Of a stretch of DNA of 33,191 nt, positions 4,077-32,559 are shown piece by piece. This stretch comes from Phoronis australis. Lineage: Eukaryota; Animalia; Phoronida. The notes beneath the pieces were generated by a model. It had not been told where the DNA came from and searched no databases. It saw only the letters and a program-made list of their open reading frames with translations. The DNA lies in contig NMRA01000366.1 in the NCBI GenBank assembly GCA_002633005.1, positions 264,562 to 297,752 of the forward strand, written 5' to 3'. Position 1 is the first letter of the stretch; the number at the start of each line of letters is the position of its first letter. The position numbers and the translations under genes are program-made.

Positions 4077-6784
4077 TCAATGAAAGATAGATGGTATTTT
4101 GACTTGATGAATCTCGTCTTTAAAATCGTCCTCTTTTTCTTTTTCCTTTTCTTCCGCGTGATAAGCCCACTCTGGCTCCATTTCGGACAACTCTTGGCGC
4201 TTTAACCGCTCCCGCTCTTCTTTTTCTTGTATAGCTCGCTTTTTCTTCTCAAGCTCTTTGTCTACTTTTGACTTCCATTTTTCAGCGTCTTTTAGATTTT
4301 GCTCTGCAAGTTTCTTGCGCCTTTCCTCCTCTGCTTTCAACCGTTTTTCCAAGTCCTGCTTCTCCTTTCTGTATGTTTTAATGGCTTCATTATCAACATC
4401 ACCTTGTGATGATGTCAGAAGCGCCCTAAGCTTAAAAAGTCTTTTCTTCTTTTGGTCCGCTGATTCCCCTTCCAAGCTATCGAGGTCACCAATTTGATAC
4501 TCTTTAATTCCACGAGCCTTCATAAGTTTTGCCACTCTTTTCCGTTTGTCTGCCTTACTTTCGCCGTCTAGTGTTGCCCATGATCCAATGCTAAACTGAT
4601 CGGCATCCATTTTGCTTGAAGTGCTCTCCTTTGCATATTTCTTTCTCACGTCTATGAAACGATACATTTTGTCTAAATACGATTCCCCTGCTAACGAGTC
4701 TAAATCGCTTTCATTGTACTTGACGCCTTTCTTTTTCAACATGTTCGTTATACGAGCTTTCTGTTGCTGGCTACTTTCACCTTTCAACAAAGTCCACGAA
4801 CCAAGCTCGCTGCTCAAAGCGCCGGCACCGGCTAATAACCCGTAATTGGCTCTCATTTTATGCAGCCTAACTTTCATTTCATGGCGTGTTTCTCCCGCGA
4901 GAGCCTCCAGGTCGTGTTCGTCAAATTTCAGTTTTCGCATTTGCATTTTCTTTGCTACCCTTTCCCTTTTCGCCTTCAGACTTTCTCCAGGCAAAGACGC
5001 CCAGGACCCTATGTCCTCTTCGCCCGATAAACCCATAGTTTGTCTGAGGAGTACGAGCCTTTCTATTCTGGCAAGGTGTGTTTCATCTCTCCTGTGATCT
5101 AGAACTCCGGTATCAAAATTACTAAATCCAATTTCTTTTAGTTTTTTCGATATTCTTTGCTTCAATTCATCGATAGTTTCTCCGTTTAGAGACGTCCATG
5201 ACCCCAATTCTCCCCTTGTTGTCAATCCGTATCTCTTCCTCAAGGCCACTAGCCTATGCTTCTTTTGTTCGGAAGTTTCACCAGGAATGTTTTCTAGTTC
5301 AGATCTGTCAAATCCTTTAATGCCTCGAGCATTCAGTTCATTTGCGACCCTGGCTATCTTTTTCTCAGGTGACTCGCCGTCTAGTGTTGCCCAGGATTCC
5401 ACGCTCCCATCATCGTCTTTCAGCGCCGGTGCGTTGTGAGCTGTCGACAGTCCATAATCAGACCTAAGGTCAATCAATCTGGCTTTTTTTTCGTCCGCTG
5501 TTTCATCCACTTCGCTATTCAATTCGTCAGAGTCGAACGACGAAAAACCCCTTTCTCGCATTTGCTTGGAAATGCGTGCTTTCTTTTGCTTTGCCGTTTC
5601 TCCTGGTTGCGTACCCCATGAACGTAAAGACCCTTCACCTGTACGGTGATGATGGGATTTGTTTTCAGTTCGTTTTGAGTAAATAAGATATCCACAGCAC
5701 ATGAGTAGTAGAATTCCAACAGCTCCAGCTGCTATCATTATGTACATAGTATAATCGCGTTTCTCATGTTCTCCATGAAACTTTCCTGCAATTGGATCAT
5801 AACCTTCAGTCCAGGTTCCTGTTTTGACATCAAACTCTTTGTGGTAATTTCCAGTTACAGGGTTCCAACCCAACTTCCATTTATTCTGACTCCAGTCAAA
5901 CATCCCAGCAGAATTGGGCGCCGTATTTGGATCTGCATAACCGTCTTTCCATCTTTGGTTAATAGGATCGTATCCAGGAAACCATTCACCATTAGTTCCA
6001 AACTGGTTGTTAAATCCTTCTTTCCATCTGCCGTTCATGATGTCCCAACCCGGGTTCCATTGATTAATTTCGTACAAAAAACCAGGGGAATACCTTTTCG
6101 TTTTGTCACTTGTACCTCTGTTAATTATAGGGCTTTTATATCCCGGCTCCCACTGCGAAGTTTGCTTGTTGTATCCTGGTGAAAATACTTTCAAAACGTC
6201 GTCATAGCCCTCCGATGATGTGTCTCCTTTCTCGCTGCGAGAAGCCAAATCCCAACCATCCCGCCACTGATTTTTCGCAAAATCGAAGCCCAGTGAGTTA
6301 CCTGGATTGTAATAATTGCCCTGCCATTGACCTTTGCTAGGATCGTACCCAGGATACCAATCCGCGAACTGTTCGTTCCAATTATCATTCATCCCTCCAG
6401 CTTCCATTGGTGATACGCCTTGAAAAGTGTTTGTACTGGGATTGTACCCGTCTGTCCATCTGTTTCGAGACCTACTCCAAAAGGGATTCCAAGAGTTTTT
6501 TACCATGTTAAACCCAGGATACAGTTCCCCTGTTTTGGGGTCAAAAGGACTCTTGAAGCCAGGTCTCCAAGCCCGGTTATCCTTATCATATCCTGGATAC
6601 CACCTCCTAGCAGGAACATTCCAACCTTCGCTGTACCTGTTTTCTTCTGGGATATATCCTTCTACGTATTCGTTATTACTGCCGGGTTTGATAGGAGAAT
6701 AAAAGTTGGGCTTCCATCGCTTTTTTACGTTGTCCCATCCGATAACGTAGTTGTTGGCTTTTGTGTTCCACGTGTTTTTTTCGT
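4077..6784 (-). CDS. Coding exon 4 (2.7 kb, terminal): extracellular aromatic/Gly repeats, TM helix (about 5747-5679), six cytoplasmic repeats, coiled coil
   Basis: Uninterrupted 902-codon frame. Acceptor ttgtcatttcag|AC is phase 1. TM segment MYIMIAAGAVGILLLMCCGYLIY is followed by basic KR. The ORF track's start at 6821 is a non-ATG codon inside the intron. Confidence 0.93.
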
Positions 6785-9700
6785 CTGAAATGACAATCAA
6801 TAACGATGTTGATGTAGACAAGGAAGGAAATTTTCGAAATGTCGGTTTTAGACAATGCTATCCATCTGGATGAAGCTGCAGTAATGTTAATAGTGTTACT
6901 GTCCTAGCTTTAAGCATCCTATTTACATGTAACTACGTTTTTCTCAACCTTTTCCACTTACACTAAATGTGCATGTGCTTGAGAACCCTATCTGTTTTGT
7001 TTTTAACTCTAGGTGAGGATTTATTTCCCACAAGGTTCAAAAGTAAACTTCTTGGCATTCAAGAGATGAGAGGCAAACAAAGTTCGTCAATAGATCTTTT
7101 TTCAATTGATTGAATATGACACCAGATTCACATGGGCCATCTGAAAGTTACTGGCCTTGCTGTAAATCCGCTGGCCAAGGGCCACCGGGCTGTTATGTTA
7201 TGGACATACACCCACGACGTCATAGACAGTAGTAACACAAGACGTGTTATGCAAGGCACAGTCCTCTGATAAGTTAAATGAGTCTCCGGACATAACATTT
7301 TGACCCACAAAGCTTGAAGCACTAACTTTGAATGAAACACGAAACACTAGTTTAAAGTGTTAAGAGACTCTTCAATTTTTCATATTTTAGTGGCGAGTTC
7401 TCGGATTACAAAGGCTTAAAAGAAAATCTCGGATGCCTTTTTGTAGGTGAGTGTAGCAGATAGATAGATTTGCAAGTGCGAAAGGTTTCAACCAGAAAGA
7501 GCAATCTATGTGAAACCCACTTTCTAAAAAATAAACACTTTATTTTTTTTTCTGTAATGCGCTGAGATAACTAAGGGTGTTTAAAGGCAAAGGCAACATT
7601 TTTCATGTCATCTTCAGTAAAAATAAGGTTCGTTAATTATCTCGGACATGTTTTTCAGTTAATTACGGCTTCTCGCAATGTAATTAATTACTCGTGCCAT
7701 ACTCCGGTAGTGACGTTTAGGGAATCGAGAACTACGCGCCAATTTTGTTCTGCGTTCGAGTTTACTGTGAGGATCTGTATCACCACTTCCTATCTATGAG
7801 CATTCTCCGACAAGTTAGGTTGTTAGAGAACTCAGATACAATGCATTTAGGGATTGTTTAGATTGTAGTAACTTGAAAATGGCTGGAGTCTCCTACCCAT
7901 TTCACAGTGACCGTAGTGACGTGAGTGACGGAGAATTTTGTTCACAGCAGTGGTGACGAAGAAGTTCTCATGGACAGTCAGTGGGTGGGTATACGTTTGA
8001 GCCCGAGTATAATGAGGCAGATTACGCACGGCCACAGGCAGCTGTTCTGAGGAATGACAAAGAGACTAAGGACAGACGTGGTGGAATGCCTTGGTGCAAA
8101 TGCACGGTGTGCACTGTTATGCCGACCTCAATGGAATGGCTATGCTGTTCAGAGTTCGACGAGGCCAAGCGACTACTGGAATCTGTATATACTTTCCATG
8201 TACCTTGATTGACACAGCGCATCCTGACTTAGGTGTCCATTTGAATGCTGGTGTGCTAGGCACCTTCTTTAGAAGTCACAGAGCTAACTCAAGGCGGTTT
8301 TTTTCCCATTCAGTGACTTTTCCAGACGTAGAGGGTGGTTAGCGTGTGATAACATTTGGCTTCTTTGTTAACAGCCAAGCACTGGTATGATAACAGGTAG
8401 GCCAATTATGTACCAGGCTTATTACAAACCACGTGTGAACACAGTCAAACCCAGAGCGGAATGGAAAACGTTCGGAAAGAATAGAATGTCATGACTTCGG
8501 TTGTAGCTAGGCGATTGTGGCGATTCAAAAATTAAACATGATCACTATTTGACGAGGATTTCAGAAATATTATTCGTTTATGTTCAAATACGTTATAACT
8601 TAACGTTTATTTTTAACAGCACGGCCCAGTCAGGCTACTGAGATTGGAGATTATAGAGCAATCATCGAACAAAAGAGAGCTGGCCCTCCAACCATGAATG
8701 CCAGAATGGAGTTAATCACTCGTGTAAGATATTGGCTACAGGGGCCATCTTCCCAACTTGTTATTGGGCTATAGAGTCGAACAAGTTGGGAGCAACGAGA
8801 ACACGCCATCATGTGGAGGAGATTTCCCAATGCAAAGGGTCTGGCGGAAGCCGTACGCGGGATGCGTAATTAAAAATATAGCCATTCTGATTGTAAATCC
8901 TGCTAATATGTCCAAATTTGTTACCCCACCATAGTTTCCTCGCAGCATTTAGCCTACGGCAGTAGTGTATTCCTCAAGATTTCACCTTCCGGTACTTTTA
9001 TGACTAAATAAATGCATCCTACTTCAGGGTTTTTGGTGCGAAATGGACGCCGCCACAATTTTGTTTTTCATTTTTTTTTTCAGGCGTTGTTTTGCAAGGA
9101 AATTCATCAATTCAGCGTACATCTCATTCGTAATCTGACGGTAGAAAATGCTGGCCACACACTCGGTAATTCTCCACCGCTTTGTAGGTTGCGTGGACGG
9201 GTAACGCTGCGTTCTTCACACGAACGAGTCAAGTACGGGGACGTGTGTAATTTTTCGGAAAGCGATGTAATGGTACACCCAGAGTGCGCGTGAGACGATA
9301 ATGAGTACATCCCGGTACGCAGCAACTGTGCGACATATTGACTGACTCGTAAACATGCAACGACCAAACTTAACACAACCGAGGTAGAAAAATGACTGAC
9401 GCGACAGCTCACACATTCAGACTATATGAAAAGAAAACTACCGTAATTATTGACTACCAAAACGTCACTTCCGGAGTTTGGCATGAGTGATTAATAGCAT
9501 TACGAGCAGCCTTAATTAACTGAAAATTATGTGTGGGATAATCCCCTGCCATATGCCACACGGTGGGTTGTGCAGGAGGAAGTTGACAACATGTTAAAGT
9601 GTGGAGTCATAGAACCATCTGATACACCCTACAATTCCCCGGTGGTCTTAGTGAAGAAGGACGGTTCAAATCGATTCTGCATCGATTTTCGTCGTTTGAA

Positions 9701-12700
9701 CGCCATTACCAAGTTTGACTCGGAACCGATGGGCAATCCTGATGACATCATGGCTGAGATCAGCAAAGACCAGTATTTTACGAAGATTGATCTAAGTAAA
9801 GGGTACTGGCAGGTCATTGTCGCCGAAGAATCACGACCCAAGACCTCGATTGTAGTACCAAGTGGTTGCTATAAGTTCGTAAAGATGCCATTTGGTCTGG
9901 TAAATTCGGCAGCGACCTTCAACCGCATGATGAGGAAGATGTTGGCAGAAGCACATAATACAGAGCATTATGTGGATGACATTCTTTGCCGTAATAAGAC
10001 CGGGACTGAACACCTTGCCACCTTGCGAGACACCTTCCAATGTGTGCGAGAGGCTGGACTAACGATTCGACCCACCAAGTGTTCGGTTGGATCTCGTTCC
10101 GTCGATTTCGTTGGACGTGGTTGGTGAAGGACACCTGGCAATGGATGAAGAAAAGCTGGGACGTATCCGAGATGCACCACGACCCAGAACGAAGAAACAA
10201 GTTCGTTCTTTTCTTGGGTTGGCTGGATACTGCAGGAAGTTCATCCCAAACTTTGCTGAAATTGCCGTCCCGATTACTGAGCTCACAAAGAAGAAACAGC
10301 CTAACAGCGTGCAATGGGAAGAAACTCAGCAGCATTCATTCGACACTCTTCGAGACCTGCTGACGAGAGCACCCATACTGAGATTACCTGATTTCAGTAA
10401 ACCTTTTATTGTTCAGACTGATGCGTCAGATACTGGTATAGGTTGTATTTTGTTGCAGGAGTATGATGATGGCAGGTTCCCAGTGGCATGTGCTAGTAAG
10501 ATATTGTTACCTCGAGAACGGAATTACTCCGTCATAGAGAGGGAATGTTTGGCTATTGTATTTGCCATCAGAAAATTTGCAAAGTACTTTTACGGTAAAG
10601 AATTTATCATTCATACTGACCATCAACCCGTGGCTTACATTCAAAAAAGTAAGTTAGTCAATGGACGCATCATGAGGTGGGCCGTGTTTTTGCAAAACTA
10701 TCGATTTAAGGTTGAAGCTATCAAAGGCTCAGAGAATGTTGGTGCCGATTACCTGAGTAGGTGAGAGTATTGAAGATTCATGGAAATTGGGTAATAGATC
10801 TAAGTGTTAATCAATATTTAAGTCTTCCATGTTGAGAAAATCTTAACAAGTATTTTCTTGAGGAGGGGCTTATTGTCAGAATAAATATTGATTGAGTAAT
10901 TAGTAAGAATAGATCCATTTTAAGTTGCCCATAATTTGTGAATATGTACTTTTAAATCATGGGGTCAGACTTGTTGACATGTATTTTAACGTCAAAATCT
11001 ATTTTTAGATGGTGTTTACAACTTTGGGTTCTGAAGTCAAAGTACTCTAGAGATTCTAGAATATTCTGAAAACAAATTGTAACAGCCAATAATATGAGTG
11101 GGTATGATCATGTGATTTTATTAGCCAATCACTAAATAAGTAGAATGTTACAATATGGGCTGAAATTAACAAGATAATTAGATGCGCTATAGTAGTTGAA
11201 GCATAAAGACTTGCTACAGTGTACAGAAGCAATTGTACAACAGAGCAATCTCGTGGAAGATTCTAGAAAGGATCTTGGCAAGGGCAAGGGTTAACGAACA
11301 GGACGTTATCTAAGAGCTTGTCACTTGCATTGTGGGTAGTAAGATACTACTTGAAGTCTTGCGTCATCAGCCAGAGACTGTGACCAGCAAGAAGAGTCGC
11401 GGGTAGAAGAAATTGCCTGCAAGTGTTGCATCACCAGACACGGTGACCAGCAAGTACACTGTCGCTATACAGTGTGTGTAGTTCGAAGATTCACCAGCAG
11501 GACAGACATCCAAAAAGTGGAGAGTCCTAGCTTGGATAGCAGATAAGACACTTGATTGTTTTGGTTGTTTGATTAAAGTAATCTTTAAAGAGGGCGCTAG
11601 CGTAGTTACTCTTTGTAGTAGATTACTTAATTAACAATAGGTTTCATTTGTCTAATTAGGGGTTATCATATAATAAATTAATTACTGGATTTGATCGTTC
11701 ACTCTCCATCGACGCACAATCTCAAAGCATAGCTACCTTTTAAACAAACCCACAGTCAATCGTCTGACACTGTCATTTAAACAATATTCCTGGCCAGGTG
11801 TACCTTTCTTAAAAAGTCAAAAGACTTGGGAGTGTTTAGAAAAAGATATTGTGAATCAGAGGAGACCATAATTCGTGCAAACTAGTCGTAGGTTTTGGCG
11901 TAAATCGCTCTTTAGACTCTGAGTAAAAAGCGTCCTCAGTTACGACATTTAGTGAAATGGTTCACCTGGGTTCTGCTTTACTAAGACTTCAATGTAGAGT
12001 TTCTGTGAGTGGAGTAACTTATAGTTTACGCGAATGAGTGTACAGTACCCGAAGTTCACACTCGATCAGCCCTAGATTAAATCCAGAAACCAAACGTAAA
12101 TCTCCAGCTCTCGAGTAAAAATCGAGACTTCGAGCTCAGACTAGAACTTATACTCTATAATTTTAAGTTGCAGTCATCCACCAAGCCATAGTGTAGAAGA
12201 ATTATTGTATTCTAGTACACAATAATAGAACCTTACCTTGAGTAGTACATGCATAAAAGAAAGTGAGAAAAATACTTTGAGTACGTTTTCGAGTAACAAG
12301 TTTAGACCCCGGTTCCATGCCTTTTAGTTTATTGAATTCTATCTCTAACATTTGAAATGACCGGATGTAGTTTCAAAGTAAATGTTAGTATTTCCTGAGA
12401 GCAATTTCAACCTGAATTTTTATCTGAGGTAATCGAAATCGCATATTGGTTTTGGTGGCGCCATTTTAAGTCCCACTAAGCAAATTAGATCAACGAGTTG
12501 GCATGACATATCGTCCACGTGATTTGGCCTCCGAAAACCGCTAAGTGTCTCAATGCATGCCCGTACCCAACATGCGACTTGTGGGCGCAGCTACAGGAAG
12601 CGGACCAAACATGGACTTCAAAAAATCGATGTAAACTACTACCCTCAGTCACGTGATTAACAGGGTTGAAACGATACATTGTACATCGCGAACTGATATT

Positions 12701-15700
12701 TGCCAGTTTCTTGGTTTCAACATCGCAGCTCAAAATGCAACAGTACAAGTTATCGTGACTTTCTTGTGTGCATAAAAAGAAGCAAGACAACTAAAGTAAT
12801 TTGACTAATATCTTGCATTAGAATGGGAGAGCTGTTGGGCTATTTCAGTAGGGGTGGGGCCTATTACTTTGTTTGCCCCACCACATTACATATTTAAAAT
12901 AGTGAATGAATTAGTTTCAAGGTGTTACGGGCCTAGTCACACAAGTAAAGCAAATTGCATGATGCCTGGTGTGTCTTCGTATGATTCCTGTCACATGATT
13001 GACCATAGGAAAGGATGGCATTCTATGTTCTTGGACTCGAATGTCATATCATTGGAATTACGCTTTCTTTGAGTTGTTTACTGGCCACATGTCATACCTT
13101 ATTTAGTCATCTGTATCGTCATTCTCCGGTGTATATCGTCGCTCTCCGGTGTATTTATATACCTCATTCCCTTATCTTATAGTTGCATATAATTTCATTC
13201 TCTCGGTGTATTTTGTTTTCTCTTACATAAGACACTTAGCCATTTTGTCTATTTATTTTGTCCTTTTCATTGATCATAATTTTTATATTTTAGCCTTATA
13301 TTATGTTTAGTCTTATCCGTTACCGCCACTACACTAGGGTGAGCTCACACCTGGCAGTAACCGTACCTCCCGTCGCCCTTCAGCCTTGGCCTCTGGAGTC
13401 AGGGTCGGGGTATCCGGCTGACAGTGTTTTGTAAGAATGTAAATCTATTCAATACAACTATTTACCCCTTTCTTATTTGGTTTGTCTCCGCGGATGGGTA
13501 TGAGCTCTCTTACACCATCTCTTGTGGCGATTTTTATTGGCCATCTTTCCAGTGATTATTATTTTACGTGTATATATTATTTTGCGTTCATATTTTGGAA
13601 CGTTATGATGTCACAATAAATTACCTTTATTTCGCCTATATACGGTATCCTTTATATCTCTGGAAATTGAGCTTGCAACGCAACTACCATTTTTGGGTCA
13701 TGTGTCGAACATAAAATGTATGTCTCAAAAAGATATTCATGATACGTTCTAGTGTAATACTACACTTACCGCCACATAAATGTCCTGTGCAATCCTCATC
13801 CTCCACCTCTTTTTTCATCAACTTAAGCGGACACTGAGTCGTTGTGCAGAAGATTCGGTGTCGTTCTATTTTACAATCCAGTTTACACGGCCCATATGCT
13901 GACCACCTGGTCCAAGCGTTGGCTGGAAGGAACGCAAGAAAATAAATAGCTTCATTTTGCCAATTGGTGATCTTCAATGTATTCCATGCTTTGTCATCCG
14001 TCGTTCTTTATACACAACAGATTTAGTACCCTCTGGGTGTTTCTTTTTTTCTTTTTTTGATTTACCGAAGCACACATTTAAACCTATTTTCGTATTGAAG
14101 CTTTTCAGTCTGCTTCACCAATCGTGTAGCGAAAATAGAAACAATGCCTGCCTGTGTGACAAGTGCTTGCAGTCCCCTTTTGTATTGTGGGTATTGTACG
14201 TTCACAAGTGGCATCCATTTGTTACGTCTTAAGCGATGTTGAAAATAAAATTTAGTTTAAAGGTGTGTCCTTTGTGTAATGATCTTCGTTAAGATTATTT
14301 ATCTCCTAAAAGCAAGTTCATGGTACTTTTGATTTAATTTGTTTACTACAAAATAGTGTGGAACTTTCTAGAAGACTGAGGTCAGAACAGTGATGATGTA
14401 ATTTGTTTACTACAGTATAGATTGGAACTTTCTAGAAGACTCTAGCATGACAGTGATTAATGCAGTCTGGAATAATCTAGAGACTAGTACATGTTTGTAG
14501 AATAATTGGGTAGGTTCCAGAAAGTTCTGGTATGTGCTTGAATTGATGAAAAGTTCCAGAACATTGCATTAGGCTATAAATACACAAGCACGGGTTTGTG
14601 TTAGTCAGATTAAGTCAGTTGAGTCCAGGAAGATCAAGTCGGGAGATCAAGAGAAGATCAAGTAAGTTCAAGAAATTTAATCAGAAGAACTACAGTGAGT
14701 TGCAGTGAAGAGAATCAGCAGTTACAGCGATGGCCAGTAAGGAGCCAGCTATAGAGACAGCAGGTTATTGAACCAACGAGTGTTACAGTTGCTGGAAGTA
14801 TCTCAAAGTTCATAACAAGTCAAGGCTTCGCAGCACTGGCTGGAGCATAAACAGACATTACGTCGGACGTTTTGTTTGAGTAGGCTTGTGAACGTACGGT
14901 CGGGATTAATAAAGGATTAACTCGAACCAGTCTTCAGTCAATCTTCGCACCGAAAGCTATTAGCACCGGTCTGTAACAACCTGCGCCCACCCAGACACGG
15001 GGAAAAACGTGGCAGTGTGCATATTATTAAAATTCGAAGAAAGACATGAATTCATTATCAAAATGCAAAACGTGTGCCAAAATTGCATATTAATACTAGT
15101 TTTTGTAATAAGTGCCACACGGTGGCCTCATTACTTGAGAATAAATTGATTGAATGGGAGTGATTGGTGACTGTCTTGTTAGAAATGCACCTCTTATGGA
15201 GTCGCAGTCGTGTAAAATCTGGTTGGACAGAATTCCTTGGGTTTTGAATTTTACTCAAATTTATTTCTCAAAATGACATCTTGACAATACTTGTAGACAT
15301 TTTCAAATTTGATACATTGTGTGTGACTGACATATTGCGAAAAATTGCATGAAAAAACTACCAGGGTTTACAATTCAATTTTTTGTGAGAACTGTTCACA
15401 TAGGATTGACATTACTTGAAAAGTATGTGTGCCCTTTTAGTCCATATTTTCGTAAAGTAGGGTAGCGAACACAACTTGAAGATGCATTTGTTGAGTAGCT
15501 AATTCTTGAAAATTTGACGAACCTACTTATATATCTTGGGAGTGAAGTTAAGTCCCACGGTGAGAGAATTTGGCTTAACAATAATACTAGTAAAACACGA
15601 AAATCGTAAAATGGTTGGAAAAAGTCTTAAAGGACACCAAATCCGGTTTAGGTCCGTTAAAATATATTAAAAACGACATTTGCATTCAGTTCCTTGAAAC

Positions 15701-18700
15701 GAAATAAGGCTCTATGAAGTGCGTCCAGGGGGTGCTCGGGGGGCTCGGCCGAGCCCCCATTTTGCGAAGATGGGCCAAAAGGCCCGAACAAAAGTCCACT
15801 AAAAGGGAGGAACTACCAAAAGCCGGCTGAGTACGCGCATGTATAACATCCATTTACTTTTGCAGCTTACGAAATTTAAATGATGGATGATACCATTCTT
15901 GGGGTTCTGAATTACGTCAAGCTATGTTGGCCACGTGTGCACGATCTCATTTCAGTAACATGCAGAGGCGTAGTTGCTTCTGTGGGTCTGTGGGTCGGCA
16001 GTATGACAATCTCCAATAATATTTCTGACTTTGTTGGGAAAAGAAAAAAAATAGGCGCACTAAGAGGAAGTTGATCTACAAGAGGTCCCTCACAATCAAT
16101 TTTTTTCACACGTGTTGTTCTGCCTTTCACCCAAGAAAATAAACGGCACAAAAGGCTATCCTAAATTTTGGTCGAACTCTGTCAATCTCATTATCGAGGT
16201 AGGCCTACATGTATTGAGTAAGTTGCGGGAAGTATTTTTGTGTACGGCACAACTCAAGTTAGAGGAGCTTCACTGACACGAAAAACGTTTGTTCTGTGAT
16301 GGTATTACTGCGTCATTTTATTCCCCCTTGAGAATGAAACAAGTTTGTTTCGAAATACCATGTCTCTTGGTCACTGGGTCAGTTGCTTTACCTATATTCT
16401 GTTGAGTGTCGAACTTCGTTCCGGGGATACGAAGGGAACGGGATAAAGGTTGTGAATAACGACAATTGTCGTGTATCCAATCAATTTTAACATGCATGTT
16501 AACTCAAGCCCTAATTTTTTTAAAATCTTGCAAAATGCTAGCATTTCCTTTTTATGCTTTTCTCTACAATTCAGTATTTCTGCGAATGCAATAACAGTCT
16601 TGATCTTCTCCGCCTGTCGCGAGAAACCTCCCGAGGGTATTACACCAGTATTTGAGATACGTACATTTTACGATGACTAGAACTTTCACGTGTCACGTGA
16701 CACTCACCTAGGCAAACAGCCTCGTTGCAGTCTCTTGTATCCTTGTTTGCTCCGGAACACATTCCGGGCCGAGGGCAGACACGGTGCCTGGTTTTCTCTC
16801 CACCGCCGCAAGGTCTGGTGCAGGGTCCAAACTCTCCCCATTTACTCCAATTGAGTGCTGTTGACATAAAGAAATTTAATTAATGAGATACCGTACCGTC
16901 TGCTATTTTGCTCACATGACTACGATGTGACCAAGTCAGATGCAGTTCGGAGTTCGAGTCAATAACACGCCTTCAATTACACTCTGACTCTGATAAGAAT
17001 TTTTTAAAATGAAATTAGTTCCCTTTTGAATGGGGCTATTCGGAGAATTCTCCTCGCCGTGTCGCTGCTGTACTAGTGGTGATTGAATTGCGCATGCGTG
17101 GCTGTCTGCATGTAAACAACTGGTAAAAGATGGAATTTTTATCAAAATACGTCGTCGCGCTAAGCCTTATTACTGCTAATTTCCCTGTTGCAAGTCTTCG
17201 AAAGATGGACACAAATTCCCAAAAGACCTAAGGTTACTATATTCGTGGACAATTGCGGTCAACAGCTGAGGGTCAACTAACTGACAAAAAGTGTGTAGAT
17301 GCTGAAGCCCCGTGTGTGCTCTATGATTATGCAGTTCAATTCGGAGACTACACAACATTACTTAGTAAGTTTTTAGCAATCAGTTTCTATCAACATCGCT
17401 CGGTGATGTTATCCCCTCCAGTTACCCCACTGAATAACAGGTTTATTGAGTGGAACTAAGTGTTTCTTTTTGGAAACTCACCCGATGCCGGGTAGGCGCT
17501 AGCAGCACATATTCATATTGTCCTGGGTGAGAGTGCTCCCAAAATAAGAGGTGTATGGTACGTGATGCACAGAAGTCAAGAGTGACTTTTTCACAGCAGT
17601 TTCTCTTCAAAATTATGCTGTTTCCAATAAAATTCTCTAGATGAGTGAGTTTCCTTATTTTATCGTGAACCCCACCCCCAGGACTACCAGCTCAGTCATC
17701 GAATTAACATGGATAAGCCTTAATTCAGTAAATGTCGTAACATTGCATTGGAAAAATTCGACACCTAGAATGAATTTTACTTGCTGAGATCAAAAGCACA
17801 TTTTAAGTGTCATGAAAAATACACATTGTTAAATCAGTTTTAGCCCGTTTCACATATTTTAATTCAGATATTAAATAAGACTTGGGTACAAAGGTTATTA
17901 GTTTCTACACATAAACATGAACATGAAACGTCAAGTATGTTCTGCCTTACAAAAGTAGTTTTGTCTTGTCTTTTCTTTTACAATTTGCTAATATTTCTAT
18001 TTTGTTACAGGCAAGAAAAAGCAACTGAAACCAACCGCCTGACCATCTATTTTACCGTTGGACAAAGTGAAAAGCAATCCTTCAGCAATAACCTGAGAGA
18101 ATTGAGCGTAATTCAGAAATTCAGCACCTGATATGCCTGATTATGGACTCCCTCGCAATGTTGTTTCTTTCTGTGCTTTTTCAGTTTGCCATTTGTTTTT
18201 AAATACACTGATAATTGTTTATTCTCGAATCTTGTGCATAGCAGATTCTTATCCANNNNNNNNNNNNNNNNNNNNNNNNNNNNNNNNNNNNNNNNNNNNN
18301 NNNNNNNNNNNNNNNNNNNNNNNNNNNNNNNNNNNNNNNNNNNNNNNNNNNNNNNNNNNNNNNNNNNNNNNNNNNNNNNNNNNNNNNNNNNNNNNNNNNN
18401 NNNNNNNNNNNNNNNNNNNNNNNNNNNNNNNNNNNNNNNNNNNNNNNNNNNNNNNNNNNNNNNNNNNNNNNNNNNNNNNNNNNNNNNNNNNNNNNNNNNN
18501 NNNNNNNNNNNNNNNNNNNNNNNNNNNNNNNNNNNNNNNNNNNNNNNNNNNNNNNNNNNNNNNNNNNNNNNNNNNNNNNNNNNNNNNNNNNNNNNNNNNN
18601 NNNNNNNNNNNNNNNNNNNNNNNNNNNNNNNNNNNNNNNNNNNNNNNNNNNNNNNNNNNNNNNNNNNNNNNNNNNNNNNNNNNNNNNNNNNNNNNNNNNN

Positions 18701-24700: not shown

Positions 24701-27700
24701 TGCATTAGTCTGTGAAAAAGTAAAATATGTGGTACTCGATCAAAAGCTTTTGAAAAGTCAATAAATGACAACCTTTTTGTTGATGTGTTTCTGACATATC
24801 GCATACAAAGAAAATATATGACTCACAGTCGCGTAACCCTTGCGGAACCCTGCTTGGGCTTCAAAAAAGTGACCATTACTTTCTGCCCAGTTATACAATC
24901 GGTTATTCAGTATTCTGGTAAAGAGCTTTCCAATAGCCGACAGGAGCGAAATATCTCTATAATTATTCTCATCGTGCACGTTTCTTTGTTTAAACAACGA
25001 AATTAACATCGCATCACACGAAGTCTAGGGATACAAACCTGACTGGAAAATTACATTGAACAACTTCTGCGGAATCGGTAAAGTTGAATGTTTTGGTACA
25101 CTTAAACATTTCAAAAGTAACTCCATCAATACCAGCGGCCTTGCCATATGAGAGCGGATGATGGGTAAAACGGGATCATTCCGTAGCCTTGAATAAGCGG
25201 CTGAGTGCTTCGTGGCCATCGAATCCTGTCGCACCTTCCTTGGGGCGCCAAATATCTATCTCCGGCTTGGTGATACGGAAACCCTAGAGGACTGGCCATG
25301 CTGGTTTTTGAGCCTTAAAACAGTTTTGGCTGACAGTAGGCAATACGGAGCTTTGCTGGCTAAGAATTCTGGGGTCTGCCGCAGTGCACAGAGTAGCGTC
25401 TGTTGTACTAGGGGACTAGACTCTGCATGCTTAGCCCCGGGGGGTAGCGAGGTTCTGGCACTGGAGGTAGACATACCAAACCTTGGATAATTCATCTGTG
25501 GGGGCGGACTCTTACGCACGGAGCACTTGAGGAAACTGGGAGAGGGCGCTGTCGAACCTAGTGTTGGATCCCATAAGAACGTAATGCTGTAAGACCTAGA
25601 GGTCGTGCCTTGTTGCCACCTTATGGATGAGCTGAACGTGGACACGGACTTGAATCATGTATCTCTACACATAGACAATCAGCGTTTTTCTGTCCCTGCT
25701 GGTCGGGGCTCAACAGACCAAACCCAAGCACGATTGAATGTGGCTTCTTGATATCAGCAATCCAGATCTTGACGTGACAAAGGTCATCAGTTTGTGAGAA
25801 CAAACCAAGTGCACAGTACCCCCACCAAGGGTCTAACCTTTGTAATGGGGAAAATGCCTGGTTAGTGCTTAGGCAGTAGACTTCAAGCCTTACTCAGGTC
25901 TTGGCAGGGTCCTTTTTAAGATCAAGGCAAAGACGACTAAGCCCGTAGATAGGAAGTTTGATAATCTCGCCACGTCCACTGGGACTTCTGAGGTGGACGA
26001 CTCATCCACGGGAACGGGTGTGACGAGGTGGATAACACCAAGTCGACCGATGTGGAAGAAGGCGACGAAGCTGCCAAAGACCGTGTGGTGGCGAAATTGG
26101 TAATTTCTGGCCTTCATCCAGTTGTGGTAACAGGTGATCAGTCGCTTGCTAACGCCCCCACCTTAGTCGACCACAGTGCAACTTTTGCAGTGTCGGGAGA
26201 TCCTAGTGAGATGATGTATGTGAGTGACTGATGACATACTAGCACGCTTAATGATGAAGAGCAGTTAGTATTTTTATATTATCATTATGATGCCTTTTCT
26301 GATAGAGCCGTGATCTCAAAGTTTGGCAAATAAACCTGCATCATGCCAGCAATCCATCTGTTCTCCTGCAGCAAACTCTGAATAAAGAGACTTGCTATTT
26401 GCCTTTGATTCAGGAGCCACATTGTAAGGATAATGTCATGCTTAATGTTTCTAGAAATGCCAAATCATATACAGCACGGATGGACACCAATTTAAGGCCA
26501 AGGGCAACTGTTTTGGTATCCATAGACGTATCGTCAGGACCACTGCCAGACCTCTGTGACAGAGACTTAGTAGCTATAGCATGTGACCTTACTGGTCCGA
26601 ATGGACTTGTCCGCACTATTTGGCGGGTTTCGGCATACATGCCGGGTGACTCAGTTGAGGAACCTCCACCTGAGATGGTGCAGCACGTTACACAACATTG
26701 TAGCAACAATGGCATTCCATTGGTAATTGGCTACAATGCTAATCCACATCATAACGTGTGGAACAGTACTGACACAAACTCTAGAGGTGAATTCCTGTTA
26801 GAGTTCATTGTCAGCACTTCGCTGAATATTTGATATGCAGGCCACGAACCTACTTTTGTTGTTCAGAATCGCCAATAGATCCTAGATCTTACTTTGACTA
26901 GTATACGTGCAGATCTGGTGAAGAACTGAAGAGTTGACCCCTTGTCCTCCCTCTCGGATCACAGATATATCAGGTGTGAGATGGCCATTTTGTGTTATCC
27001 CTTTCTACACTGAGTACAGGGATATCAAGAATGCTGATTGGAACATCTTCGATTAAAAATGTTCCAACTCACTTGATAACCTCGACAGTGGAACTCTCAA
27101 CACTTTTACTGATTTTGATTCGCTTGCAAATAATGTCACAACTGGACTGCTTACTGGTATACCTAATCGCCAGATATGGTGTACCAAAGAGCTTGCATCT
27201 GTTCAGAAGACAAGAAAAGCTCATCGGATTGTCCAGTGAGCAGACACTGAAAAGGACTGGAAAGCCAACGGTCAGGCAAACATAATCTTCAAGTCTACTA
27301 CACGTAAGGCAAAAAGGAGCTCGTGGAGAAATTTTTGCCAGCAATCTTCAAGTTTGTCAGCAACGGCAAAACTTGATCTGAAGAAGGACAAGACTACTCA
27401 GTTGGAGACTGTCCAACGAAAAGACGGTTCATTCACCAGTTCACCTGGTGGAACTCTCAAGGCCATGTTGGATAAACACTATACCGGCAGTGTGATTCCC
27501 GGTAATGAAATTAGAGAAGTAGTACGTTACGGGCAAGAACGGCAAATCCATATGAACCTTCTTGATGAGATGGTTACTACTCATCTTGTTAAACTTACCC
27601 TCGTGTCTTTTAAACCATGGAAGGCCCGCGGGCCTGATATTTCCCGAGATGCTACAGGAAGCAGGAACCAAGCTTTTCCTGTCTAATCTTTACAAGGCCA

Positions 27701-30700
27701 GTCTTAGACTAGGCTACGTCCCAGGAACCTGGACTAAGGCGAGGGTTGTTTTTATTCCCAAACCTGACAAGGATTCTCACTTCAAAACTGTCCTCCTTCA
27801 GACCTATAACTCAAAATTCCTTCTTCTTGAAAGGTCTTGAGAAATTGGTTCTATGTCAGTTGGAAAGGCAAGATGTTATGAGCAGACTTCAGAGACATCA
27901 TTACGCTTACAGAACTGTCTTTTCTACAGAGACTGCTCTTCATTACGTGTCAGACAGCTTGGAAATGCTGTATACAAAAGTGTTTGCTCTAGGCGCTTTC
28001 ATGGACATTGCTGGTGCCTTCAGCTACATTAAACATGATGCTATCTATAGGGCACTTGTTCAATTTCGGATTGACAAAGGGCTTATTAGGTGGATTTTGT
28101 ACATGCTTGCAGGCAAACTGTAACAGCTAGCTAAGATTGAGGGAGTTAGTTTGACTGTCCGTCTCACTAGAGGTATTCCACAAGGTGGTACCTCTTCACA
28201 TGCTCTCTTCAATATGGTCATGGACTGTCTGTTAAGGCAGCTTTTGGCTAACATTGGGCAAGGTCTAGTTGTACAGGCCTATGCTGATGACATTGTCTTC
28301 TTTTTGTGAAGTGTTGATGCTTGCACATGCCGCAGCATTGTCCAGAAGGCACTTAAAATTCCTATCCGATGGACTGAGACAGTTGGCTTGGAGATCAATA
28401 ACAGTAAGACAGAAGTGGTGATGTTCACCTGGAAGCGAAAGGGGAATGTAAAACCATTAAAGCTCTATGGTACTGAACTCCCACTCCAACAAAGTCACCT
28501 ACCTATGTGTTACTCCCCACCATCGCCTTTTGGGACACCTCACGTGATGGACAAGAAAACCAAGGCCAAGTCGGCCCTGGCAAGGTGTAGCCCAGTGGTG
28601 GGTGAAACTTGGCGTCTCTCCACAAAAAATTCTCTTTGGATCTACGTTGGTGTTATCAGACCGATGTCAGCTTACGCGGCATCGATATGGATAGCATCTC
28701 TTGAACAGAACACTGTTAGAACTAAACTGACACAAAAACAGCGCTTATTTTGCTTGTGTGTTACTTCTGCCTTTCCGGGGACACTTACAGCTGTAATGGA
28801 AAAGCTTATTGGTTTGCCACCCTTGCATATTTACCTCAGCGGTGAAGCTGTGCTTGTAGCTTACTGTATGAGGTGTAATGGGCAGTGGAGTAATGTGCGA
28901 ATCACTGGTACTGTTTCTCACAAGAGCCATATTAATGTATGCAACAGGTTAATGTCAGAAACTGGAACACTTTTGGCAAAGCCAAGTGATGTTTTAATGG
29001 CGACCTTAAATCACAGACACAATTTCTATACAGATATTGGAGATGGTCACGAAATCATCGATTACAATGACCAACATTCCGTTTGTTACACTGATGACTC
29101 TAAACTTGACAACGGACTATCAGGATCAGGAATCTACTGTCCAGGCCCTGGCGGTGACGACAAAGGAAAGCTGGATCTCAGTGGGTAACACCGTTAGAGT
29201 CTTTCAAGCTGAAATTGTCCCTATTCACCAGGCTGCCCAACTGGCAAGGGAGCATGAAGCAGTCATTGATGAGGAACTCTTCATACTATCAGACAGTCAA
29301 GCAGCTATTAAAGCTCTAACTAAACCTAAAATCAATTCCCGTTGTGTCCAGACCTGTGCAAACGAGCTTAACCACCTATCAGCTAGTTGAACTGTTCATG
29401 TGTACTGGGTTAAAGCCCATGTTGGCATTGACAGTAACGAAGCTGCTGACAAACTTGCAAAAGAAGGAGCAAGAGCACCATGTTTTGTACCAGAACCCTG
29501 CATACCGGTTGCCTATGCATGCTGCAGAGCAAAGGTAAGGCACCGTGGGCGCAAACTATCCGTGGGTGCATGGAGAAAGCTCCCCGCCTGCAGACAAACC
29601 AAACAACTTTTTCCAAGTTAACCAAAAGGTTCAAAGAAACTGTTATGTTTAGATACGCTTCCATAAGGCAGCTGATACAGGTCATTATATTGTCCCAAAT
29701 GTGGCTTGGACTCCTCAACATCTGGTAGGGGTTTGCCTTGCCTACAATAGACACCATAATCTACTACTTGGTGGACACATAATCCGCCTGGTTAACATTG
29801 TTAGCTCATACAGGTTTAACAGTCTTACTATCTTTCTGAAACAAACAGGCAGATTGGAAGATTTTACCCGTGAGGAATCCGATGAAGTCGTGTCCTCATG
29901 AATCATAATTAGGTGATTAGTGTAATGAGTCCGGCCTTGTGGACTTAACACGCCTGATGTACCGCAAAAGGCACTTGCACCTTTTTTAAAATAGGACTTT
30001 TCTGAAAAAATAAAATATTGTATAAAACGAATACGAAATGGGTAACAGTGTTTTTGAAATTTCATCTTGAATATGTGAATCAATTTATTTGTTGTTATTG
30101 AAGCACAAATGCATAAGTTTTCAATCTCTCGCACTAGACCAATTAGCCACGTTCCTGTGTCCTATTCTGTACAGCCAGTGTTTCGTTATCATGCAAACTG
30201 AGGCAGTTGCAAAATATGCATCAATTTTATAGAATGCCGAGGACGTTTGCTGAGGAAGTGGTTTTATTTAGTGCAAGTATTACCTACTGCCTATACGAAC
30301 CCAGCAACGTTGCAGTTAGGCTGGCTAATTCTACAACTGTACAGTTTAAAGCCTCCAGGATTTAGAATTTTCAACAACCATTAACCCAGGGTACCACCAT
30401 AATGAAGGATGGTAAATGTTTGAATTCATGAACATTTAGCTTAATTCAGACTGGAAAAACAACTAAGTTGTAAAACATGCGTTACAGGGCCGAGTTACTT
30501 TAAAGAACACAAATAGTATTTTCAGTAGGCTAGTAGATAGATACATGTACATCTATCACAGACGTTACTTGCTTGTGCGAGGTGCGTAAAACAGTCAATA
30601 ATAACTGCAAAATCTAAAAGGGCATGCTGCATGTGTCATTAAGAAGATGAATGGCCATTGAATCACAAAGATGTGGCTTAACCTTCCACCAGAGACAACT

Positions 30701-31010
30701 AATGACATATTGCGTTACGCATTCGCCAACGTCCAATAAAAATGTAGCACTATATGTGTTTCCAAAGTCATTTGTAGAAGTAGTAGTATTAGTAGTTAGT
30801 AGTAGTAGCAGTAAAAGTAGTTGTAGTATTAGTAGTTAGTAATAGTAGCAGCAGTAGTATTAGTAGTAGTAGTGGCAGTAGCTGTAGTAGTAATAGTAGT
30901 AGTAGTCCTTTTCGTTGTTTCAAAATCTTTTCAATGATCTTACCTTCGGTGTTAAAACTATTCGCCAAAATTACAATAGCGAAAAAAGTTAACGAGTCCA
31001 ACTGCCGCAT
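4077..31010 (-). CDS. Four-exon gene, join(31010-30944,16857-16708,13922-13770,6784-4077): 1025-aa type I membrane protein (signal peptide, 2x TSP1, aromatic/Gly repeats, TM, cytoplasmic repeats, coiled coil)
   Basis: All three introns are GT-AG and phase 1. Exon lengths 67+150+153+2708 = 3078 nt give one open frame from ATG to TGA. The domain order is coherent for a type I membrane protein. Extra phase-1 exons cannot be excluded. Confidence 0.82.
7969..8800 (+). pseudogene. Decayed KolX / P2X7 C-terminal (ballast)-like Cys-rich protein
   Basis: YTFEPEY, WCKCTVCTVMPTSMEWLCCSE, then after a frameshift TAHPDLGVHLNAGVL. This matches the remembered pattern YxFEP..WCxCxxCxxMPTxxExxCCxE..CITxHPxF..LNxxVL. 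Confidence 0.75.
9110..9336 (-). pseudogene. THAP zinc-finger N-terminus of a transposase (not in the ORF track)
   Basis: ATG at 9336: MSHSCCVPGCTHYRLTRTLGVPLHRFPKNYTRPRT*LVRVKN...YRVCGQHFLPSDY. This is a C2CH THAP signature with a stop at the conserved Trp. Confidence 0.88.
9535..10764 (+). pseudogene. pol: Gypsy pol remnant: reverse transcriptase plus RNase H
   Basis: ORFs 9531-10127 and 10087-10764 join across one frameshift (VDFVG/VVGEG). The stop comes immediately after RNase H. Confidence 0.93.
10874..11769 (+). repeat. 3' LTR (896 bp), preceded by a polypurine tract at about 10860-10868
   Basis: Ends TGTCAGA...TCTGACA form a perfect 7-bp inverted repeat. GAGGAGGGG lies just upstream. 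AATAAA at 11672. Confidence 0.88.
13770..13922 (-). CDS. Coding exon 3: divergent thrombospondin type-1 repeat
   Basis: AWTRWSAYGPCKLDCKIERHRIFC...C...C...C has WxxWS, RxR and 6 Cys. Acceptor ttcttgcgttccttccag|, donor GCG|GTAAGT, 153 nt, phase 1-1. Confidence 0.88.
14220..14978 (+). mobile_element. Probable solo LTR
   Basis: Ends TGTTAC...GTAACA. TATAAATA near 14575 and AATAAA near 14908. Internal ~65-bp tandem duplication at about 14336-14460. No clean TSD. Confidence 0.65.
15714..15842. mobile_element. MITE-like fragment related to 3571-3727
   Basis: GC-rich hairpin GGGGGCTCGGCCGAGCCCCC and the shared end GGCTGAGTACGCGCATG. Confidence 0.45.
16708..16857 (-). CDS. Coding exon 2: thrombospondin type-1 repeat
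   Basis: LNWSKWGEFGPCTRPCGGGEKTRHRVC...C...C...C has the WxxW, CxxxCGGG and RxRxC motifs and 6 Cys. Acceptor tttatgtcaacag|, donor TAG|GTGAGT, 150 nt, phase 1-1. Confidence 0.92.
   Translation of the reverse strand, partial: HSIGVNGESLDPAPDLAAVERKPGTVSALGPECVPEQTRIQETATRLFA
17130..17362 (+). pseudogene. Decayed THAP domain of the ISL2EU-type transposase
   Basis: PYYC*FPCC, then frameshifted GHKFPKDLRLLYSWTIAVN and later VCS. This is the THAP HxFPxD...W...VCS pattern. Confidence 0.7.
18256..18843. other. Assembly gap (588 N)
   Basis: Run of N. Confidence 1.
20269..20431. mobile_element. Palindromic MITE-like element
   Basis: CGTTCAGTA(G)ACGCTAGGACCT..GCTAAAA occurs at the left and inverted at the right. 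The left arm has a 12-bp tandem duplication (ACGCTAGGACCT). Confidence 0.65.
20575..20705 (+). mobile_element. RTE-clade LINE 5'-UTR-like fragment
   Basis: TTATCGTGG..GCTTG..GAGCTAT..GGGTCACCCATGCCGGGCAGGT..CAGA resembles the conserved 5' region of RTE/BovB-type elements as I recall it. Hairpin GGGAGT-CATAT-ACTTCC at 20634-20650. Confidence 0.55.
22621..22702 (+). ncRNA. tRNA-like sequence / Pol III promoter remnant in the PLE 3' region (not a functional tRNA)
   Basis: A box TGGTGTAGTGG (22627-22637) and B-box-like GGTCCAAATCC (22681-22691) within a T-arm GTGGG/CCTGC. The acceptor stem does not pair. Confidence 0.6.
22763..22804 (+). ncRNA. Minimal type I hammerhead ribozyme
   Basis: CAC-CTGACGA-T-GGCCGGA-gaagag-TCCGACC-GAAAC-GTC-GTG: full catalytic core, stem II with one mismatch, palindromic minimal stem III, 3-bp stem I. 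Predicted cleavage after 22801. Confidence 0.85.
22870..25110 (-). mobile_element. Decayed LINE (RTE-X-like): RT and C-terminal Cys-rich domain, interrupted by an insertion
   Basis: NYRDISLL, QAGFRKGY, FIDFSKAFD, GTRQGCMIS, LLHADDMV, KETKIIVFRNGG, YK*LGV, and C-terminal FRCANHRL..GR..RVCTLC..EDEYYLLLVC. The clade label is tentative. Confidence 0.88.
23834..24265. mobile_element. ~430-bp insertion inside the LINE, possibly a solo LTR
   Basis: The LINE frame breaks between ...GPLRHYEKCF (about 24275) and QVDAVSHYK (about 23827). The insert has TG...CA ends but no exact TSD. Confidence 0.55.
25130..29990 (+). mobile_element. Near full-length decayed non-LTR retrotransposon of the LOA/R1 group (APE, RT, RNase H)
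   Basis: APE: QINLHH, LIQEP, SAYMP, NANPHH..WNSTDTNSRGE, SDHRYI. RT: FRPIT, FMDIAGAF, GIPQGG, QAYADDI. RNase H: YTDDSK, VFQAEI, SDSQAAIKAL, WVKAHVGIDSNEAADKLAK. Many frameshifts. Boundaries are approximate and ORF1 is not resolved. Confidence 0.9.
30775..30906. repeat. Imperfect (AGT)n microsatellite
   Basis: GTAGTAGTA/GCA runs about 40 bp inside intron 1. Confidence 0.95.
30944..31010 (-). CDS. Coding exon 1: signal peptide MRQLDSLTFFAIVILANSFNTE(A)
   Basis: ATG at 31010, hydrophobic core FFAIVILA, strong donor GAAG|GTAAGA, phase 1. Splicing to exon 2 creates T-E-A|L, a plausible signal peptidase site just before the TSP1 domain. Confidence 0.75.
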
Positions 31011-31398
31011 CCTGCAGATCGTGGTGGACGGGGTCGGAATGGTGCTTCACATTTTGTTCAGAAACGTATGTCGCTGATAATTTCTTGAACATTTCACGAG
31101 GAGATTTTGCAGCCTAAAACGTGTGACTACAGCAAGCAATACAGAATTGGATTAGTATACACGTGCAGTGACGTAGTTTTTGTCTAAATCAGGCTTCATG
31201 AAGTCACATGAAGCAACAGCCTAAGAATGAAACGTTCTGACTATGTGAAATTAGTTGCCTTCCAAACGACGTGATAAATGCACTCAGAATTAGTACGTGG
31301 CTGCAGCTTTCGCTTACTACGGTAAATATAAGAACATTCGTCAGCTACCAGTGCTGGATTCATCCTTTGTGGCCGTGGCCACGACATTTTTGTTAGGG

Positions 31399-31797
31399 AA
31401 CCCATACCAAAAAAGCCTTCCTGCAAACACTTGCCGCAAGCTTGCCGCAACGTTGCGGCAAGCTTGCTGCAAAAGTTTCTGCAAACCAGCCGCAAACACG
31501 TAGAATCAACTCTGACCAAAAAGTGGATGCAAATTTCCTGCAACCCAGCCGCAAACATTGCCGCAAGCTTGCGGCATGTTTGCCGCAAACATGCAGCAAA
31601 CTTTTACCATGCAAATGAAGTTTGCCGCAAGCTTGCAGCAAACATCTCTATGTCCTTATATGGAACAGTTCCTGCAACCCAGCCGCACACATTGCTGCAA
31701 GCTTACCGCAAACATTTCTATGTCCTGATATGGAACAGTTCCTGCAACCCAGCCGCACACATTGCTGCAAGCTTACCGCAAACATTTTCATGGGGTT
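31399..31797. repeat. MITE-like repeat built from GCAAGCTTGC-type palindromes, with a 70-bp tandem duplication
   Basis: Ends AACCCAT...ATGGGGTT. Repeated TTGC(C/T)GCAAGCTT(G/A)C units. 31639-31708 is duplicated at 31709-31778. Confidence 0.75.
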
Positions 31798-32559
31798 ATA
31801 TAGAAGTTTCTGCGAACCACCAGAAAAAATATTGGATGCAAGACTACAACATACTTGAATTGTGGCATGAATAATTTAATGTAGAAATGTCAGCTGACAA
31901 ATACATAATTTTTATTGCGGGCCCGCTTGTTGAAGCAAGAAAATACACAATCAGCTGCACACTGGATTTAACATGATAATTTTCAATATGATGTACAGTA
32001 TAATGACTAGAAATTAAAACAAAATCAGATGACAATGAATAACAGAAACTATAAAAGTGTCTATAGTGGCAATTAGTAATAATACTTGTATTACAATCAA
32101 AATTGTGTCTTGAGAGAACAACTTGAATGTATGCAAGCTTTAATTACAATATACCGAGATGTTTTCTTCTTAACGCACGACAAAATCTATAATTATTGCA
32201 ACAATGATGTTATTTACCTGACTAAACTAACATCAGCAACACTGAGCGTTGAAATGCACCCAACGGGGTGTTTATTAGCATTGAAAATGGCGCAAAATAT
32301 GTCGAATGCCAGTGGAGAAAACCATGAAATCTGACTTTCCCCCGTGGAAAGGCATGCTTAGAACACCATGTCGAGCATATTTAATCATTTTATTTTAAAT
32401 TACCTCATTACTTGTCAACAGAAAAAAATCACTCTTAACAATTATAAACATATTTATTTTTCCCATGTTCATCTAAAATACTTGAAAACTGTCGAATACT
32501 TCATCGATTACTATTTTTGCTTCCCAATATGGTTTCATGATACATCAGTCTACTGAATG

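Follow-up and report, generated by a model that had tools for sequence, protein, structure and literature searches.

Single-pass membrane proteins with thrombospondin type 1 (TSP1) domains, among them UNC5, semaphorin-5, THSD1/THSD7 and apicomplexan TRAP, share a layout in which a signal peptide is followed by TSP1 domains, one transmembrane (TM) helix and a cytoplasmic tail. Several of these families have defining domains of their own: UNC5 has immunoglobulin (Ig) domains outside and ZU5 and death domains inside the cell, semaphorin-5 places Sema and PSI domains before its TSP1 repeats, and the TRAP family, in which an adhesive ectodomain bearing a stalk of repeats is linked to the cytoskeleton, has a vWA domain and a short acidic tail with a subterminal tryptophan. 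Here we describe a four-exon gene with the same layout from the phoronid Phoronis australis, located on the minus strand of a 33,191-nt stretch of DNA (GenBank assembly GCA_002633005.1, contig NMRA01000366.1, positions 264,562 to 297,752) that was analysed as a whole and is called the window below; all coordinates refer to it. The predicted protein differs from the described ones in two regions, an array of 11-aa aromatic units in the ectodomain and six 63-aa helical repeats in the cytoplasmic part, neither of which matched a family in the libraries searched. Judged from its sequence, the architecture is new, whereas the kind of protein, a single-pass TSP1 adhesion type, is already known.

Comparison with the defining domains placed the protein outside the established families. 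Pfam scans of exons 2-4 returned no Ig, Sema, PSI, vWA, ZU5, death, TIR or kinase domain. The lack of Ig, ZU5 and death domains separates it from UNC5; a TSP1 domain directly after the signal peptide (as established by junction reads), with no Sema or PSI, separates it from semaphorin-5; and the lack of vWA, together with a 530-aa tail of different end sequence, separates it from TRAP. Our preferred interpretation, to which we give slightly less than an even chance, is that the protein would serve a single tissue or stage as an adhesion anchor, connecting a polymer outside the cell to the cell cortex.

The gene model was assembled from a six-frame open reading frame (ORF) scan, a motif scan and the best GT-AG boundaries. 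On the minus strand, the six-frame scan gave an open frame spanning 4080-6857 and, near 13900, one resembling TSP1; another TSP1 (near 16850) and a short exon with an ATG (at 31010) were added by the motif scan. The resulting minus-strand exons (31010-30944, 16857-16708, 13922-13770 and 6784-4077) join into 3078 nt encoding 1025 aa and a stop codon. Introns 1, 2 and 3 are all in phase 1 and bounded by GT-AG, seen as CT..AC on the plus strand in raw RNA reads. These reads came from three samples of one study (X1, X2 and X3), matched by species label, with ~18-19% of each run used; a further set, X4, consists of contigs, showed nothing on exon 4 and was not counted as evidence. Each junction was crossed by 35-111 reads in X1 and X2 and by 0 in X3 (for 6784/13770, 111 in X1 and 62 in X2; for 13922/16708, 61 and 74; for 16857/30944, 69 and 35), with 22-57 distinct start places per junction in X1 and X2. 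The initial annotation had proposed a four-exon, all-phase-1 gene encoding 1025 aa; we recovered identical exons, and the reads span all three of its junctions exactly. The main isoform skips a gap of 588 N in intron 1.

Expression was switched on or off between samples. Read depth over exon 4 (4077..6784, minus strand), which was delimited by its open frame and read depth and encodes the array, TM helix, six repeats, tail and stop codon, was 118-141 in X1, 89-112 in X2 and 0 in X3, giving rough values of ~69, ~61 and 0 reads per kb per million. First mates on exon 4 lay almost all on the plus strand, which in most stranded libraries denotes minus-strand RNA. Because reads from X3 are present on a minus-strand transcript next to the gene (32096-33191), the silence of the gene in that sample is probably real.

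Exon 1 contributes coding sequence at 30944..31010 (minus strand), found by the motif scan and tied to exon 2 by the reads across 16857/30944, with a predicted signal peptide at aa 1-22. Only two peaks appeared in the 19-residue hydropathy profile: the N-terminal one is weak (1.31), whereas that at aa 466-494 is strong and reaches 2.35. Exon 2 (16708..16857, minus strand, phase 1-1) carries WxxW, RxR and six cysteines and is identified by profile as a TSP1 domain, passing the cut-off of Pfam TSP_1 (E=5.4e-9, 36.6 bits against 21.6) and matching thrombospondin-1 (E=3.4e-9), semaphorin-5A (E=2.1e-5), UNC5B (E=0.0026) and also properdin in the PDB. Exon 3 (13770..13922, minus strand, 153 nt, phase 1-1), placed by its motifs and by junction reads, keeps the WxxW, RxR and six cysteines of the TSP1 pattern; it reached no Pfam cut-off, the best match being TSP1_CFP_C (E=0.029, 15.3 bits against 27), and no TSP1 chain was among its 7 PDB matches at E<=10. 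Of the two TSP1 domains first proposed, one is thus secure, while the other is better called a divergent, TSP1-like domain, its motifs kept but the profile cut-off missed. Both retain WxxW, the site of C-mannosylation, and both have Pro and Asp in place of the Ser/Thr of the O-fucosylation consensus; the 468 luminal residues contain only one N-glycosylation sequon. The protein may have originated by exon shuffling that placed these two phase 1-1 exons ahead of a single large exon of repeats.

The array, which lies between the TSP1 domains and the membrane, comprises ~22 units of 11 aa at aa 128-461 (5772..6773, minus strand), recognised by their periodicity, by a β-hairpin register of the chignolin/GB1 type and by partial hairpins in a low-confidence model. 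It is 18% aromatic and free of cysteine, and it is periodic at 11 aa, the autocorrelation of its aromatic residues peaking at lag 4 (z=5.0), lag 7 (z=3.6) and lag 11 (z=8.6). Chignolin, whose design started from the protein G B1 peptide, is a hairpin of 10 residues with a Tyr2-Trp9 contact and an Asp3-Thr8 turn (PMC9054626). The array units show the same aromatic2/aromatic9 register as chignolin and the protein G B1 hairpin, in the form Gly1-aromatic2-Asp/Asn3...Gly/Asn7-x-aromatic9: among 20 units, Gly1 occurs in 15, Gly/Asn7 in 13 and Trp9 in 14 (position 3 being partly fixed by the selection filter), and the best unit is identical to chignolin at 6/10 residues. At a score of at least 20, 12 non-overlapping windows fit the chignolin register, whereas 2000 shuffled sequences gave 0.66 such windows on average and never more than 4; at this threshold 0/5000 motif permutations reached 12 (maximum 11), and the reversed chignolin motif yielded 0 windows. 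With a laxer threshold of 15, 16 windows were observed, a number reached by 6/5000 motif permutations.

These results make the hairpin array a well-founded prediction from sequence. A single-sequence AlphaFold model of the ectodomain (mean predicted local distance difference test score, pLDDT, of 37.6) placed a strand, 4-residue loop and strand on several units, with its best blocks (58-67 pLDDT) near the last four, C-terminal units; the fold search built on this poor model carries no weight. Chignolin is one designed peptide, whereas the Phoronis array is a natural, near-continuous tandem of ~22 units, and their likeness is one of structural convergence, not of descent. A match of two 11-aa units to the C-terminus of an actinobacterial ribosomal protein S1 (E=0.046) was rejected and read as a convergent hairpin motif. 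In the literature searched, which includes few subscription papers, no paper described a natural tandem chignolin array.

What such an array might bind can be approached through its composition. Stacking on sugars is common for arrays of exposed Trp/Tyr, and the most likely ligand would therefore be a glycan or a secreted matrix. G/W/Y/N-rich repeats also recall secreted structural proteins, and a different role is conceivable in which the protein resides in the membrane of a secretory granule or organelle, its luminal array scaffolding shell, cuticle or glue cargo and its tail handling transport. The strong, sample-restricted expression and the single sequon in the luminal part would agree with this, but the cell surface is the usual place of action of TSP1 domains, and we consider such a role distinctly unlikely. 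The aromatic units also resemble in kind cell-wall-binding repeats, which, taken with the properdin-like TSP1 match, would suit a pattern-recognition or sensory receptor whose array binds microbial glycans and whose repeats recruit signalling adaptors. We doubt this to the same degree, as Pfam detected no signalling family, whether TIR, death, kinase or any other, and immune cells would usually leave some reads in most tissue samples, while X3 has none.

For an anchor between an outside polymer and the cortex, the connection to the cell interior would start at the predicted TM helix (aa 469-492; 5679..5750, minus strand), located by hydropathy; a Cys-Cys pair lies close to its inner end, and Lys/Arg come next. 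This single strong hydrophobic stretch with its inner Cys-Cys and Lys/Arg fits a type I topology, so that the type I layout suggested earlier, a prediction resting on one strong hydropathy peak after a weak N-terminal one, is upheld. Inside the predicted membrane boundary, six 63-aa repeats (4407..5633, minus strand) were delimited by repeat analysis, each made of two half-repeats; in order they occupy 5445-5633, 5220-5408, 5025-5213, 4830-5018, 4623-4811 and 4407-4595. The repeats share 30-47% aa identity and 9 invariant columns, carry a net charge of +12, and recur at a spacing that varies between 65 and 75 aa, which would suit a beads-on-a-string arrangement. At four-fold degenerate sites, 20/76 were identical between repeats (0.26, against 0.28 expected at random). 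Synonymous sites are thus saturated, from which it follows that the repeats were duplicated long ago and that their protein sequence has been kept under constraint. One repeat modelled with its own six-row alignment (pLDDT 80.7; predicted template-modelling score, pTM, 0.56) formed helices at 14-27, 35-38 and 46-59, predicting a three-helix module of 63 aa. No match stood out when this model was used in fold searches (Foldseek, best E=2.4 against the PDB and 1.7 against viral structures; VIA fold search, best Z 4.4, with 0 of 48161 at Z>=5), a result that does not by itself establish a new fold.

The two halves alternate, A and B, within the 63-aa unit, at half-repeat spacings of 31-43. Following Glu1-Ser/Thr2, Arg9 and a hydrophobic residue at position 10 are each present in 12/12 half-repeats, and position 6 is basic in 9/12; Glu1 and Ser/Thr2 were the pattern used to select the half-repeats, so that only Arg9 and hydrophobic10 are independent. 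The top PDB match of the repeat profile was the STPR domain of silkworm FMBP-1, at a non-significant E=0.2. STPR is a strict 23-residue repeat with Glu1, Thr/Ser2 and Arg9 as hallmarks, in which Tyr16 and Arg20 contact DNA and the shared residues are ascribed to helix stabilisation (PMC4856987). In the STPR of FMBP-1, as in that of ZNF821, Glu1, Ser/Thr2, Arg9 and hydrophobic10 stand at the starts of basic helices, as they do in the half-repeats. In contrast to STPR, the Phoronis repeats alternate A and B halves in a 63-aa unit behind a TM helix, and both their period of 31-43 and the occurrence of Tyr16 and Arg20 in 0/12 led us to reject an STPR identity. The shared Glu1-Ser/Thr2-Arg9 is best read as a motif that would stabilise helix starts.

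The same comparison bears on a Notch-like receptor, in which ligand binding would release the tail and STPR-like basic helices would bind DNA. The match to FMBP-1, the invariant Arg9, the frequent basic position 6 and the presence of the Glu1, Ser/Thr2 and Arg9 hallmarks (PMC4856987) point in this direction, but the match is not significant, the period is not 23, the DNA-contacting Tyr16 and Arg20 are missing throughout, and the same source attributes the shared residues to helix stabilisation. Moreover, the modelled repeat packs as a three-helix unit, and STPR was absent from the 50 listed fold matches. We regard release of a DNA-binding tail as very improbable, and just as improbable an independently evolved Notch-like receptor in which the ~22 hairpins form a new β-meander binding surface and the cleaved part carries STPR-derived DNA-binding modules. 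That the two repeat types are new folded domain families without any nuclear signalling is, in our estimate, close to an even proposition.

Beyond the repeats, a charged helical tail (aa 920-992; 4179..4397, minus strand), recognised by composition and charge pairs, precedes an acidic C-terminal end identified from sequence (aa 993-1025; 4080..4178, minus strand). The tail consists of 56% E/K/R and 16% hydrophobic residues, its best heptad has only 38% hydrophobic residues at a/d by simple count, and its opposite-charge i+3/i+4 pairs number 36, where shuffled versions give 26.5, a modest excess (p=0.013). Single alpha-helix (SAH, or ER/K) domains are rich in E/K/R and in such charge pairs (PMC5812594) and have no hydrophobic seam, as in the tail, which is unlike them in the hydrophobic residues that remain. 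A single alpha-helix is thus the better prediction, with a weak coiled coil possible, and the coiled coil named in the initial annotation is doubtful, given the poor heptad and the charge pairs that favour a single helix.

To place the protein among known sequences, large collections were searched with the 901-aa exon 4 product, the TSP1 exons lying outside these searches; the protein libraries are dominated by microbes and included no animal positive control for their coverage of related animals. A word search of exon 4 gave 7995 candidates of 495-1577 aa with no relative among them, and phmmer over 1.84 billion representatives gave 0 at E<=0.001. Profiles of the six repeats (7992 candidates, none at E<=1) and of nine array segments (406 candidates, none at E<=0.01) found nothing, nor did exon 4 match viral, metagenome or prokaryote contigs or, by tblastn, phage. 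No family exceeded its cut-off for exon 4 in Pfam, none was found in the PDB or in fold searches, and library scans of the protein gave no catalytic family at cut-off. Matches in NCBIfam and PHROGs were far below significance, Rfam and tRNA scans found nothing, and no protein fitting this one appeared in the literature searched. Pfam LigD_N (E=2.8e-6 summed over repeats, 27.9 bits against a cut-off of 31.1) and, likewise, PBC (E=1.9e-4) were rejected with no single stretch passing, and we judge the summed LigD_N score to be an artefact of the repeats; ATP synthase d and septin matches (E>=0.3) were also rejected. The earlier statement that no family matches holds for exon 4, which is blank in sequence, profile, Pfam, PDB and fold searches. 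Its description as lineage-specific is only partly borne out, since the searches are blank but their animal coverage is uncontrolled. Moreover, the age of the repeats makes it probable that relatives beyond the collections searched have orthologues.

The age of the repeats, together with the microbe-dominated and uncontrolled libraries, would also be compatible with membership of an invertebrate family outside these collections, the protein being an orphan only in appearance; set against the blank profile searches and the absence of any phmmer match in 1.84 billion representatives, we attach only a small chance to this. Absence of relatives combined with all-or-none expression would likewise suit a sex-restricted, fast-evolving gene, and the protein might be a gamete-recognition protein on sperm or egg whose TSP1 pair and array bind the coat of the partner. 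TSP1 repeats do occur in sea-urchin EBR1 and in the Tast proteases of ascidians, and TTSP-1 is listed among the sperm factors of ascidians (PMC9265791). However, the gamete proteins just named have no constrained cytoplasmic part like the one of 530 aa seen here, and gamete recognition seems to us fairly unlikely.

Taken as an adhesion anchor, the protein would grip an extracellular polymer through many weak contacts made by the TSP1 pair and ~22 predicted aromatic β-hairpins, while its link to the cell cortex would be made by six predicted basic three-helix modules and a spring-like charged helix, the repeats with their net charge of +12 meeting the cytoskeleton or an acidic membrane surface. 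The signal peptide, TM helix, hairpins, three-helix module and single-helix tail in this scheme are all predicted. The multivalent binding array and non-enzymatic scaffold proposed at the outset agree with the evidence, including the lack of a catalytic family, but ligand, partner and localisation are inferred. Several points weigh against the scheme. The hydropathy peak of the predicted signal peptide is weak, and expression is known only from three raw-read samples of one study. Chignolin's Pro4 is kept in only 6/20 units, and the ectodomain model is poor, with low-confidence helices on part of the array. The modelled 63-aa module has no above-noise match to a known cytoskeleton-binding fold (best Z 4.4). 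Furthermore, as chignolin-like hairpins are common in proteins, with >13,000 reported (PMC3438464), a hairpin unit says little on function.

The transcript begins at ~31103, where 5' ends of 11 molecules (X1) and 5 molecules (X2) map, leaving a 93-nt 5' untranslated region (UTR; 31011..31103, minus strand) with two upstream ATGs. One opens a 44-codon out-of-frame upstream ORF that runs across the start codon, whereas the second is followed at once by a stop (ATG-TGA), and translational control by the two is possible. A minor cassette exon of 134 nt (29868..30001, minus strand; 3-5 reads per junction in X1 and X2) has canonical sites, shifts the frame and brings an early stop inside exon 2, and is likely a poison exon or noise. 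Shortly before the start site lies a palindromic 11-nt-based repeat with a 70-nt tandem unit (31420-31810), and near the beginning of intron 1 there is a GTA microsatellite (30774-30906). The neighbouring transcript at 32096-33191 (minus strand), AT-rich and stranded, is present in all three samples with several AATAAA and looks like the 3' UTR of an upstream neighbour gene.

The introns had been described as filled with transposable elements, and Pfam does detect retroelement reverse transcriptases in introns 1 and 3. Such retroelements, like the introns and the TSP1 exons, mark the host as an animal. Intron 3 contains a broken long terminal repeat (LTR)-type pol (9516-10761, plus strand; RVT_1 and RT_RNaseH by Pfam), and intron 1 further reverse-transcriptase remnants (Pfam) at 21025-22273 (plus strand) and 22853-24822 (minus strand), which by their motifs look Penelope-like and CR1/L2-like, respectively. 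A decayed non-LTR retrotransposon lies at 26306-29387 (plus strand), with an endonuclease and RVT_1 by Pfam and an RNase H-like end seen by eye that has no Pfam match. A 1-kb element occurs in two copies that are 96% identical (713-1718 and 18844-19848), the second abutting the N gap at 18256-18843; because reads pile on both strands, it is a multicopy repeat.

The gene at this locus is thus verified and well expressed, although in a plain ORF scan it falls apart into unrelated pieces. The initial annotation had seen a candidate for an undescribed system here; two undescribed repeat types are indeed present, but in one protein, not in a multi-part system. If the array folds as predicted, it would be a natural tandem polymer of the designers' chignolin hairpin, useful for the design of β-repeat proteins and adhesives. 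How new adhesion receptors are built by exon shuffling and internal repeats is a question known in kind, and this gene brings to it two repeat types without a family in the libraries searched, of which the 63-aa module would add a small new domain to those of the cytoplasm, one that has long been under constraint.

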